Virus record (IMG/VR): IMGVR_UViG_2563366972_000006 | From: a virus | Lineage: Duplodnaviria; Heunggongvirae; Uroviricota; Caudoviricetes | Strand: one strand, 5' to 3' | Length of the DNA stretch: 34,196 nt | Shown: piece after piece, positions 17,682 through 20,600 of the stretch | Numbering within the stretch: the stretch's first letter is position 1 | Layout: every line of letters starts with the position of its first letter | Program-made: the position numbers

Positions 17682-20600
17682 ACCCGCTCCAACATTTGTA
17701 ATAAGCCTTATTGTATTACAGCACTGGCGTATTTTTTATTACGTGGGAGCGGATTGTGTTTAAATGGTATTCTGTTCTCTGGCTATGATTTAAGGTCGGG
17801 TGTAGCCTCAGTGCTGAATTTTTACGGCAGCAGAATGATGCATTATCGGTGGAGATTTTGTATTTCCTTGCAGGGTCGGTGATGCATCATTCTGGTGTTG
17901 TAAACAGCACCGCAGAGGTGTTCCTCAGTGCGAGGGTGGTTTATATAGTGGTTTAACGGGGAATCACAATATCTGTTGTAGGGATGGATATTTCGGGAGG
18001 CACCCGACACCTCGATTTCTATTACAATAAAAATGATTGATCTCATGCATTGACCAACCGCCTCCACTGGGCGGTTTTTTTTTATTCTGAATTCAAAAAA
18101 AAGAAAACACGGACACTGATAATGTCCGTGTGGCAATGCCATATAAGTCAGCGATGAATATGGCGCAAAAAAAAGCGCGGCTGTCGGATTAACGCCGCGG
18201 GACAAAGTCCGTGAAGAAGAATAAGTATTGGCCCCCTTCTGGGGACGAGTTCATATTACTAAGCATTAAAAATGGTTTAAACCCTAAGATTAACCTTAAT
18301 TTCAGGTAAGTCTTATTTCACTTCCTCGCGCCACGACCGGCGCACATCAAATAACTCCACACCAAAGGCATCTGCGGGTGCCTTTGGTGGGCGTTTTTTT
18401 TGCGGGCTGCTGGTGGCCCTTTTTTCTTTACAGGAGAAAAAGTATGTCTGAACCCTTATCCGGTTCTGGTACAGCCGCTGCGCTCGGCGGGGCGACGGTA
18501 TTCGGACTGTTTACCGGGACGGATTTCGGGATTGTGTTTGGGGCGTTCGCCGGAGCGTTGTTTGTGGCAACGATACCGCAGTCGCTTTCAGCCTGGCGGG
18601 TGGCGGCACATTTTCTGGTGTCGTTCATTGTCGGCGTGCTGGGAGCGCGCGTGCTGTCAGCCTGGATTGCAGCAAAAACAGGTTATGACGGTACATCGGC
18701 GGATGCACTGTGTGCGGTGCTGGTATCGGTGGTGTCGGTAAAGATTCTGTCGTTTATCCACCAACAGGATATCGCATCACTGGTGTCCGGCCTGTTCTCC
18801 CGCCTGCGGGGGGGAGGAGGCGGCAATGTTAAGTAACCTTCCCGGATTGCTGAATGTGGCGTTATGCACGGTTATCGTGCTGACGCTCTTTTTTTATCGT
18901 CGTTGTGATTCCAGACATAAACCGCTGATGTCATGGCTGGCCTGGCTGTTGATGTTGCTTTATGCCTTAACGCCTCTCAGCTATCTGTGTGGTCGCCCGT
19001 TAGCAACGGGCTGGCTGGAAGTGTTTTTTAATCTGTTGTTCTGCGTGCTGGTAATACGTGCTCGCGGGAACGTTTCAAAAATCCTTTCATCCCGGAGGTG
19101 AACATGTCGGGTAAATTCAGATTCAGCCGTCGGAGCGAGAAAAATCTGGAGGGCGTCAAACCACAACTGGTTGCCGTGGTTCGTCGTGCGCTGGAGCTGA
19201 CGGAGGTTGATTTCGGTATTACGGAAGGGCTGCGCACGAAAGAACGCCAGAAACAGCTGGTCGCGGAAGGGAAAAGCCAGACCATGAACAGCCGTCACCT
19301 GACCGGTGATGCGGTGGATGTTGTGGCCTACATTGGCAGCCAGGTGTCATGGGACTGGCCTCTGTACGAGAAAATAGCGCAGGCATTTAAGCAGGCTGGC
19401 GCAGAGCTGAATACTCCCATTGAATGGGGCGGGGACTGGAGTTCTCTGAAAGACGGACCACATTTCCAGCTGAAGCGATGACAGCAGGGGCTGAATATGA
19501 GCAGAGTTACTGCGATTATCTCCCCTCTGGTTTTCTGCATCATTGTCTGCCTGTCATTGGCTGTTAATCATTACCGTAATAATGCCATTACCTACAAAGC
19601 GCAGCGTGACAAAAACGCCAGAGAGCTGAAACTGGCGAACGTGACAATTACTGACATGCATCAGCGCCAGCGTGATGTTGCTGCACTTGATGCCAGATAC
19701 ACGAAGGAGTTAGCTGATGCGAAAGCTGAAAATGATGCTCTTCGGCGTAAGCTTGATAATGGTGGACGGATGCTCGTCAAAGCCAGATGTACAGTGCCAG
19801 CCACAACAAAAGGCTCCGGCACCGCCATCGTGGGCAATGATGCCACCGTCGAACTCTCTCCAGTTGCTGGACGAAACGTTCTCGGTATCCGGGGGGGAAT
19901 CATCAGCGACCAGGCAGCCTTGAGAACGCTACAGGAGTACATCAGGACGCAATGTCTGAATTAACAGAGCCAGCTTAATTGCTGGCTGTTTGTGTGAGGA
20001 TGGGATTGTGTCAATGTTCAGGTATTATATGAATTACTGGATAAAATCGTTCGGTTTTGAATATCCGTCAAGAACCAGATCGTGATTCTCCCGATGAAGA
20101 ACCAGTGTATCCATATAATCAGGTTTAAATCTCCAGCCGTTCATCTTTTTTGCAATTTTCGACAGACAGTGGTTATGTGTGAAAATTACAGCAATATTAT
20201 CAAATTGTGATATTTCCAGTATATTGTTTACTGCGTCATTATCGCAGGTTGAAATATCAGGAGTGGTTGCTGTTTTCCCACCCGAAAAAAAAGAGGCTGT
20301 CTGTATCGTTCGGACTGTATCTGTTGAATAGAGACCGTAGTCCGGAAACATTTTGCTGAATGCGTTTCCATATTGTTGAGCCTTGCTGGCTCCATTTATT
20401 GTGATTCCATCACGTTCTGACAGGCATGTATTGGTGGAGCGATCACATCGTTCTCCATGTCTGATGAGAAAAATAAGCTGATGCTTCTGGTTAATTTCAG
20501 CGATGTCATTCATATCAAGCCTGGTCGGAGTTCTTGCTATATATATGATTGACAGAGAAATTAATATAACGAGTAAAGATATAATCAGAAATTTTATTAT

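Follow-up and report, generated by a model that had tools for sequence, protein, structure and literature searches.

What fills the interval between the late antiterminator gene Q and the holin gene of a lambdoid prophage when no convincing gene is found there? The question is raised by the IMG/VR virus record IMGVR_UViG_2563366972_000006, a stretch of 34,196 nucleotides (nt) that we call the window and to which all positions refer unless another record is named. The window is a lambdoid prophage of the Escherichia coli type. Between its tRNA-Gly and holin genes lies a block of 752 nt (17692-18443), which an initial annotation, made from the sequence alone, had described as dense in secondary structure. 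That annotation expected the late promoter, the qut site and tR' in the block and considered small RNAs (sRNAs) possible; sRNAs turned out to be the best reading of it.

We conclude, with a probability of about 65%, that the block is a set of non-coding RNA cassettes with guard terminators, and neither a promoter/qut region nor a degenerate gene. It is a mosaic of three cassettes: a structured RNA joined to the tRNA genes (17692-18085, plus strand), a convergent sRNA-like gene (18246-18167, minus strand) and a pair of terminators ahead of the holin gene (18360-18425, plus strand). Our confidence in the anatomy of the two RNAs and their terminators is of the same order. In the mechanism that we propose, two regulatory RNAs would be expressed constitutively from the lysogen, with the lysis genes insulated by terminators.

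A structured RNA downstream of the tRNA genes

The plus-strand cassette contains a perfect 13-nt inverted repeat (CAGAATGATGCAT at 17831-17843 and ATGCATCATTCTG at 17882-17894); by our own estimate, chance alone would give a perfect 13-mer pair of this kind within 200 nt about 0.002 times per 750 bp. A repeat finder extends it to 28-nt arms that are 82% complementary and form the long hairpin P1 (Table 1). This and the other hairpins listed in the initial annotation are all present, both on reading the sequence and with the repeat finder, and exceed chance expectation. For 17821-18090 the predicted folding energy of the plus strand is -101.3 kcal/mol (z = -6.3, with none of 200 shuffles folding as well); the value for the minus strand is -67.1 kcal/mol (z = -2.8).

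Conservation of these structures among homologous prophages had been proposed as a check, and they are indeed conserved, with covariation. From 95 instances of the plus-strand RNA we kept 22 that share less than 94% identity, a set that includes a copy on a plasmid, the second copy of phage SerU-LTIIb, and others preceded by tRNA-Arg or by a degenerate tRNA. RNAalifold recovers 61 pairs from this alignment, 18 of them compensatory. When 57 pairs were tested, 96.9% of cells were paired, with double changes in 17 pairs and 57 cells. On all five measures the observed value is higher than in any of 500 column shuffles, and sliding the pairing partners by 1-3 columns lowers pairing to 41-56%. P1 contributes 24 pairs, of which 10 have changed on both sides, and 97% of its cells are paired. 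The spacer between tRNA-Gly and P1 is itself structured, with 17 RNAalifold pairs in 13 sequences, seven of them showing compensatory changes. The loops AGUGC and GGGAGGCACCC are invariant. Across the 22 sequences the terminator at 18056-18085 keeps its stem constant and varies in its loop. Frequent G.U pairs fit the plus strand only, which identifies it as the transcript strand.

In 87 of 93 instances, 124-134 nt (median 131) separate the 3' end of a tRNA from P1 downstream of it. A candidate promoter of the RNA's own, TTAAAT-18-TATGAT at 17760-17789, was discarded as it is not conserved in divergent members, and comparison of these members revealed no conserved promoter in the post-tRNA spacer. 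From the fixed tRNA distance and the missing spacer promoter we infer that the RNA is co-transcribed with the tRNA genes; transcription of the entire plus-strand unit likely begins at the promoter-like site 17447-17474. The tRNA-Thr/tRNA-Gly operon transcript would run about 395 nt into a structured trailer made up of the spacer, P1 and a five-helix core of STnc100 type, and would end at the terminator. Processing of the tRNAs, possibly with cleavage at P1, whose long duplex makes it a possible RNase III or processing site, would then free a stable sRNA of 200-390 nt, made in the lysogen. The AU-rich linker between core and terminator is a candidate Hfq-binding or seed region.

In phage SerU-LTIIb (KU052038.1; locus L004), an LT-IIb toxin phage fragment, the tRNA and structured-RNA module is present twice, at 1122-2030 and 3028-3575, once with tRNA-Arg/Gly and once with tRNA-Thr/Gly; the two copies are about 77% identical to each other. 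Plasmid pUTAK-5-1 (NZ_CP157153.1, 145 kb) carries a copy of the RNA (locus L117, 1709-2166) between an odd tRNA-like gene, called as tRNA-??? / tRNA-OTHER with the four-base 'anticodon' tttt, and a DMT transporter gene downstream. The strong hairpin in the tRNA leader of the window, which may serve in pre-tRNA processing or as a pause site, has a 13-nt loop duplication in some relatives. The tRNA-Thr(UGU)/tRNA-Gly(UCC) pair of the window (17538-17691) is 95-99% identical to a chromosomal locus in nearly all E. coli (5020 records), annotated as tRNA-Tyr / tRNA-Thr / tRNA-Gly in two Salmonella records; the phage pair may derive from a host tRNA operon that lost its tRNA-Tyr.

Relation to STnc100

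Judged by its sequence and predicted fold, the core of the plus-strand RNA is a divergent, homologous relative of STnc100 (EcOnc27/sRNA103), an Hfq-binding sRNA located 75 nt downstream of stx2B (PMC12370729, PMC12711010). In a targeted search the Rfam STnc100 model (RF02076) aligns end to end at 17887-18087 on the plus strand, and it matches every homolog tested at the equivalent place with 21.7-27.3 bits. The RNA has a closing stem around four hairpins and the conserved loops GUGCG and GGGAGGCACCC, with the helices recovered de novo by RNAalifold; the motifs GUGCG (P3) and CGGGAGGCACCCG (P6) agree exactly with those of STnc100. Its setting is that of the family as well: a lambdoid prophage, the interval between Q and the lysis genes, and the late-gene strand.

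The match is reciprocal. Model R1, with 110 positions and built solely from the window-type core, finds canonical STnc100 at 4318-4426 of locus L063, inside the Rfam match at 4291-4477, over its full length with 30 bits and a roughly calibrated E-value of 6.7e-7. R1 also matches a Klebsiella prophage copy (locus L096) and a copy in locus L114. Locus L063 contains both types: a window-type RNA at 3720-4005, without a tRNA and with its core partly deleted, and about 290 nt later the canonical STnc100 (4291-4477), which scores 86.6 bits with the Rfam model. Their tandem arrangement behind one type of Q marks them as paralogous subfamilies.

PasD1 and PasD2 of enteropathogenic E. coli (EPEC) E2348/69, reported as STnc100-related by their authors (Pearl Mizrahi 2021; Zhu, Shabalina and Storz 2026), reach 37.7 and 41.4 bits and thus also stay below the Rfam threshold. 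BLAST at word size 7 shows no similarity of the region to the PasA/B/C/D loci of this strain, and R1 gives no match at E <= 10 on the PasD loci L110 and L112. Permissive Rfam searches of the region return only the tRNAs and the sub-threshold STnc100. Weak matches to miRNA, mmgR and leader families were set aside as chance matches to hairpins and terminators, and an analogy to IsrK/AntQ, the Gifsy-1 sRNA beside a Q-like gene, was dropped, with only faint isrK scores at other positions.

An sRNA-like gene on the minus strand

Convergent to the tRNA-linked RNA lies a putative self-contained minus-strand gene, in which a promoter-like site would drive a transcript of about 80 nt and a second, backup terminator follows the first (Table 1). 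The RNA is predicted to have the anatomy of a base-pairing sRNA, with a 5' hairpin (SL1), a 20-nt CU-rich single strand, an internal hairpin (SL2) and a terminator with a U8 tail (SL3). The minimum free energy of the window copy is -26.8 kcal/mol (z = -3.3).

The family, gathered in part by a pattern scan of IMG/VR, comprises 36 distinct sRNA sequences, in which 93.6% of cells are paired and double changes affect seven pairs and 27 cells. The paired fraction, the number of double-change cells and the covariation score all lie above those of each of 500 shuffles, and slid controls pair at 39-52%. SL1 varies in sequence and keeps its pairing (CCCC/GGGG, CUCC/GGAG, CUCUC/GAGAG, CCUCCC/GGGA.., CUUCCC/GGGGAAG). 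Two pairs of the SL3 terminator covary, and SL2 and the terminator loop are invariant. The stem of the backup terminator is likewise kept through compensatory changes (CACGGACA/UGUCCGUG, CACGAG/CUCGUG, CACGGGUA/UACCCGUG). The combination found in Hfq-dependent sRNAs, here SL3 with its U8 tail after the internal hairpin SL2 and the U-rich single strand CUUAUUCUUCUUCA, is present and conserved in the family. So is the position of the promoter-like site, whose -10 variants (TAATAT, TAGTAT, TATGAT, TAAAAT, TATACT) all fit TAnnnT. Divergent copies occur in L114, where the cassette follows another Q and precedes a tRNA, and in loci L115 and L116, where serU and zinT flank it.

No Rfam family matches this sRNA, it shows no similarity to PasA or PasC, and a full-text literature search returned nothing on its sequence or on yodB/serU sRNAs.

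Table 1 Features of the window around the block, in plus-strand order
Feature	Position	Strand	Description
Q-like antiterminator gene (DUF1133)	16644-17186		Upstream of the block, after DUF1367 and YbcO genes; weak Phage_antitermQ match
Q-linked module	17187-17301	+	115 nt after the Q stop; two small hairpins and terminator 17264-17295, T-run to 17300
Promoter-like site	17447-17474	+	TTGCGA-16-TATCAT; 9/12 consensus positions
tRNA leader hairpin	17484-17533	+	GGUUCUGAGGGGGA...UCCCCCGAAGAACC, immediately 5' of tRNA-Thr
tRNA-Thr(UGU)	17538-17613	+	
tRNA-Gly(UCC)	17617-17691	+	
Structured spacer	17692-17820	+	Straight after tRNA-Gly; RNAalifold
Spacer long-range stem	17719-17726 / 17809-17816	+	CAGCACUG with CAGUGCUG
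Spacer small hairpin	17727-17731 / 17740-17744	+	GCGUA / UACGU; one further inner helix in addition
Long hairpin P1	17821-17904	+	Arms 17821-17848 / 17877-17904; repeat finder, covariation
STnc100-like core	17915-18013	+	Closing stem P2 around P3-P6
P2 (closing stem)	17915-17920 / 18008-18013	+	GAGGUG / CACCUC
P3	17923-17926 / 17932-17935	+	CCUC / GAGG, loop AGUGC
P4	17936-17941 / 17962-17967	+	GUGGUU / AAUCAC
P5	17968-17973 / 17987-17992	+	AAUAUC / GAUAUU
P6	17993-17997 / 18003-18007	+	UCGGG / CCCGA, loop AGGCA
AU-rich linker, core to terminator	18014-18055	+	Unpaired in the consensus structure
Intrinsic terminator of the plus-strand RNA	18056-18085	+	AACCGCC-loop-GGCGGUU, then U9; hairpin 18056-18076
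Backup terminator	18131-18095	-	9-bp-stem hairpin 18131-18107, U-run 18106-18095 (TTTTCTTTTTTTT)
SL3 terminator	18199-18176	-	CGCGGC...GCCGCG, U8 tail 18174-18167
SL2	18210-18200	-	11-nt hairpin GGACUUUGUCC
CU-rich single strand	18230-18211	-	20 nt, CAAUACUUAUUCUUCUUCAC
SL1 (5' hairpin)	18246-18231	-	GUCCCC-AGAA-GGGGGC
Candidate sRNA, ~80 nt	18246-18167	-	Fold, covariation
Promoter-like site	18281-18253	-	-35 TTTAAA 18281-18276, 17-nt spacer, -10 TAATAT 18258-18253; AT-rich upstream
First guard terminator	18360-18401	+	13-pair hairpin 18360-18389, GGCG, T8
Second guard terminator	18404-18425	+	GGGCUGCUGGUGGCCC, then U6; not mentioned in the initial annotation
Holin ribosome-binding site	18433-18437	+	AGGAG, directly after the second guard terminator
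Lysis cassette	from 18444		Phage_holin_8 (ATG 18444), Phage_holin_3_7, M15 endolysin, Rz; downstream of the block

A paralog beside serU

The minus-strand family has a chromosomal member. In E. coli K-12 MG1655 (NC_000913.3) a paralog occupies the plus strand of the yodB-serU interval, where the motif is at 2,043,137 and the predicted extent is about 2,043,093-2,043,181 (locus L242, about 4090-4182). The serU-side paralog is present in 5418 of the 5426 complete E. coli genomes, where it has no annotated feature; prophage-type copies occur in 346 genomes.

Supplementary file 1 of Adams et al. 2021 (PMC7815308) gives, in two listings, a Term-seq 3' end at 2043181 (+), classed as 'orphan', a term used there for 3' ends that cannot be assigned to an annotated gene. 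The sequence listed for this end is exactly the terminator of the paralog, at the U-tract. The terminator of the family thus ends a real transcript in K-12. The rows listed in the EPEC RIL-seq supplementary tables contain no yodB/serU entry.

A wider interpretation, tentative and on balance doubtful, is that the minus-strand gene belongs to an unrecognised E. coli sRNA family whose ancestral core copy stands beside serU, and that prophages spread re-targeted versions of this host sRNA or competitors for its protein partner. The prophage copies would keep an invariant 3' scaffold (GGACUUUGUCC and the terminator CGCGGNN-UUAAUCCGAC-NNCCGCG) and swap 5' hairpins and seeds. The tRNA-fused STnc100-type RNA might, in parallel, represent a class of tRNA-operon-embedded phage regulators.

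Action in trans or in cis

Several points weigh against reading the block as a set of RNA cassettes. The STnc100 score of the window (19.8 bits, E = 0.02) is far under the Rfam gathering score of 47 bits, and the homology is drawn from the shared architecture, the two loop motifs and the reciprocal model match; the E-values of R1 are rough, coming from a short calibration. The promoter-like site of the minus-strand sRNA matches just 8 of 12 consensus positions and is not called by the promoter scan, which calls no consensus promoter in the Q-linked module at 17187-17301 either. Most of the sequences come from recombining E. coli prophages and are not independent, and the shuffle control can overstate covariation. 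Finally, the Term-seq 3' end could belong to a long 3' untranslated region of yodB and not to an independent transcript.

How the RNAs would act is less firmly indicated than their anatomy. To trans-acting, Hfq-dependent regulation we give somewhat less than even odds. The alternative that survives best is action in cis only: P1 and the core would serve as processing or stability elements of the late mRNA, for example as RNase III sites, and the minus-strand RNA would be a cis-antisense RNA that causes decay of leaky read-through before the holin gene. The late transcription unit does include every element. With its 28-bp near-perfect duplex, P1 resembles the substrates of RNase III, the minus-strand RNA is fully complementary to any plus-strand read-through, and PasA and PasC are likewise opposite-strand RNAs just 5' of a holin gene. 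An exclusively cis-acting role nevertheless appears unlikely. The sRNA cassette also occurs without a following holin gene: essentially all E. coli have it next to serU, and in L114 it precedes a tRNA. The plus-strand RNA is also found on a plasmid, upstream of a transporter gene. Relatives of STnc100 bind Hfq and have trans effects in published work (PMC12370729, PMC12711010). Each unit moreover has its own terminator, which implies that it is made without late transcription.

Mosaic structure and proposed guard terminators

The block is widespread and modular. About 217 of the 5426 complete E. coli genomes contain at least 80% of it at 76-99% identity, the nearest relative among them being strain ECL27977 (98.7% identity). 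In E. coli W ATCC 9637 the block lies at 1,515,180-1,515,932 of NC_017664 and is 87% identical. BLAST comparison of 109 loci fetched via the Q protein separates five modules: 17187-17301, the tRNAs, 17692-18095, 18095-18350, and 18327-18443, the holin leader. As a minor amendment to the initial annotation, the ATG of the holin gene is placed at 18444.

That annotation had also placed the block in a slot for cargo or moron genes, and relatives of the window bear this out. A cassette of TerB and DUF3927 is inserted at about 18350 in locus L002 (2808-3382) and takes the place of 18095-18350 in loci L008, L046 and L078; in Stx2 phages, stx2AB followed by STnc100 fills the equivalent slot (PMC12370729, PMC12711010). 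The borders of the two-gene cassette, which encodes a TerB-family protein and a DUF3927 protein, lie exactly at terminators, at about 18095 and about 18350. A DUF3927 gene also precedes PasD in EPEC.

Terminators are abundant in this part of the prophage. A terminator scan finds eight terminator-like sites in 17000-18700, against 1.9 +/- 1.4 in dinucleotide shuffles. Two of them, the guard terminators, stand in tandem before the holin gene. Both hairpin/T-run units are conserved in 27 non-redundant holin leaders, including that of phiP27, with constant stems (GGGCC/GGCCC in the second) and variable loops, and they persist even where the downstream holin is of another type. Their position suggests an insulating role: the tandem terminators at 18360-18425 would block read-through from constitutive tRNA and sRNA promoters into the lysis genes.

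Could the whole block be spacer DNA, made of recombination scars or 'boundary sequences' whose hairpins are merely terminators or insulators, with no functional RNA? The coincidence of module borders with terminators at about 18095 and 18350 speaks for this explanation, and the stems of three terminators never vary and so give no covariation evidence. It leaves a good deal unaccounted for. The helices outside the terminators (P1-P6, the spacer stems and SL1) carry many compensatory changes, and the loops AGUGC and GGGAGGCACCC as well as SL2 are invariant. Between the Q stop codon and the holin, lineages just 74-82% identical to the window keep a length of 1252-1273 nt, and the core is homologous to a known expressed sRNA. 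We regard the spacer explanation as quite improbable.

Coding potential

We aligned ten lineages from tRNA-Gly through the holin gene for a codon-periodicity test. Variable sites of the holin gene are strongly 3-periodic (14/30/72 by codon position, p = 8e-11), and no sub-segment of 17692-18444 shows such periodicity in these lineages (p 0.3-0.9). Insertions and deletions in the block measure 1, 2, 4, 5, 7 and 13 nt, and the alignment contains no open reading frame (ORF) of at least 30 aa within the block that is common to all lineages. The block is non-coding, and it is not a degenerate gene; the remark that it held no convincing ORF was well founded, as periodicity and conserved ORFs are absent and the indels do not keep to multiples of three.

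Public annotations of the block conflict with one another. Mostly they give no gene; elsewhere they call ORFs of 41 aa (minus strand) or of 96 or 137 aa (plus strand) in differing places, and the 'hypothetical proteins' of PGAP differ between genomes or are not called at all. Candidate ORFs of 83, 120, 35 and 32 aa were rejected as genes for want of periodicity, for their indels and for poor conservation. A small protein might still be sought in the 32-aa ORF at 18211-18309 (plus strand), which the window and 6 of the 9 homologs compared retain intact, in the 120-aa ORF at 18205-17843 (minus strand), or in a 7-codon ORF (AUG-GAC-UUU-GUC-CCG-CGG-NNU-UAA) found in many members of the minus-strand sRNA family; PGAP and Prokka do call assorted hypothetical proteins in the block. 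We attach very little weight to this idea. The 3-periodicity is absent, indels break the frame, loci L004, L119 and L044 have lost the 32-aa ORF, and the annotated ORFs do not agree from genome to genome in strand or position. As for the 7-codon ORF, its AUG is missing from the window (CAC for CAU) and all its codon positions are invariant, which points to constraint at the RNA level.

Probable late promoter and Q-loading site

At least three unrelated families of Q precede the block in one locus or another: DUF1133, a PF03589-type Q and a 124-aa protein annotated 'antiterminator Q family'. Elsewhere the preceding gene encodes a methylase. Combined with such different neighbours, the block cannot hold a Q-specific qut site. 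A promoter scan downstream of Q, suggested in the initial annotation for sigma-70 sites, places plus-strand promoter-like sites in 17000-18700 only at 17447-17474 and inside a tRNA, with none in 17692-18443. The expectation of a late promoter and qut site in the block has to be given up on these grounds and in view of the segment with which Q is co-inherited, 17187-17301.

Of the 85 Q-based loci with a match, nearly all retain this Q-linked module together with the DUF1133 Q, even where the downstream content differs. In locus L040 the distance from Q to holin is 268 nt, and the interval holds only the module, one extra terminator and the holin leader. Going by its linkage with Q, the module is probably the site of the late promoter, of Q loading and of the first terminator, and a short RNA of about 80 nt resembling 6S/StxS would be made from it. 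Of the proposed tR' a loose sense survives, in that the terminators at 18056, 18360 and 18404 must be read through by Q-modified polymerase. The lysis genes would be expressed only once such polymerase, loaded at about 17187-17301, has read through all terminators.

The original proposal, that the block itself comprises pR', qut and tR' and that its hairpins form a Q antitermination switch, has in its favour the several plus-strand intrinsic terminators between Q and the holin gene and the long non-coding leader that also precedes gene S in lambda, but it is highly improbable given the pairing of the block with at least three unrelated Q families and a methylase, the restriction of co-inheritance with the DUF1133 Q to 17187-17301, the retention of Q, module and holin in L040, which lacks the block altogether, the lack of a plus-strand promoter-like site in 17692-18443, and a covarying multi-helix core and a minus-strand unit for which such a switch has no need.

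Other features of the prophage

Right after Rz, on the opposite strand, a 205-aa gene (20034-20651, minus strand) encodes a protein with an N-terminal hydrophobic segment and a histidine-phosphatase motif (His_Phos_1, RHGxR); it is likely a lysogenic-conversion moron. Rfam matches identify RalA, the RalR antitoxin RNA, at 1557-1735 (plus strand, 207 bits) and the sok antitoxin RNA at 14735-14906 (plus strand, 102 bits), so that the prophage also carries two type I toxin-antitoxin RNA loci.

Comparison with known systems

sRNAs in the Q-to-holin slot of prophages (STnc100/EcOnc27, PasA-D, StxS, AgvB, AsxR) are coming to be seen as connecting prophages with host regulation and virulence, and current family models miss most of their diversity. 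On our reading of the block as RNA cassettes, RNA genes occupy the seemingly 'empty' form of the toxin slot. A divergent subfamily of STnc100, fused to a tRNA and scoring beneath the Rfam threshold, occurs in about 4% of complete E. coli genomes and on plasmids as well. The second, sRNA-like family combines prophage copies with a near-universal chromosomal copy that is unannotated even in K-12 and marked by a published 3' end. Two alignments ready for covariance models are now available to annotators, and the place to search for the Q-dependent late promoter is corrected for phages with a DUF1133-type Q.

The plus-strand RNA shares with STnc100, which is known from Salmonella prophages as well as from Stx2 phages, the slot between Q or the tRNAs and the lysis genes, the late-gene strand and the closing stem around four hairpins. 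It differs in the sequences of P4 and P5, in a 5' extension of about 200 nt (structured spacer and P1), in being joined to a tRNA gene at a fixed 124-134 nt, and in its strong U9 terminator after an AU-rich linker. PasD1 and PasD2 are also plus-strand, Hfq-dependent prophage sRNAs just 5' of the holin gene; PasD, in contrast, follows a DUF3927 gene, has its own TTGACT promoter and has no link to a tRNA.

3'ETS-leuZ and similar sRNAs derive from tRNA spacers and are released by tRNA processing. The tRNA-linked RNA would likewise be a regulatory RNA from the 3' trailer of a tRNA operon. The likeness is one of analogy only, as the trailer here is about 395 nt long, highly structured and phage-borne, and its processing is predicted.

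The minus-strand gene resembles PasA and PasC of EPEC prophages in lying on the strand opposite the late genes, just before the holin gene, with its own intrinsic terminator; PasA and PasC have their own promoter, and the minus-strand gene has a promoter-like site. Its sequence and fold are unrelated to theirs, and whereas Pas sRNAs are confined to pathogenic lineages, this family has a core-genome paralog beside serU.

With lambda 6S/StxS and tR' the block has in common intrinsic terminators between Q and the lysis genes that Q-modified polymerase overcomes. The true counterpart of lambda 6S/StxS, a short constitutive transcript from pR' (PMC7547250), looks to be the Q-linked module at 17187-17301. 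The terminators of the block, unlike tR', end independent cassettes or guard the holin gene, and they are not tied to a particular Q.

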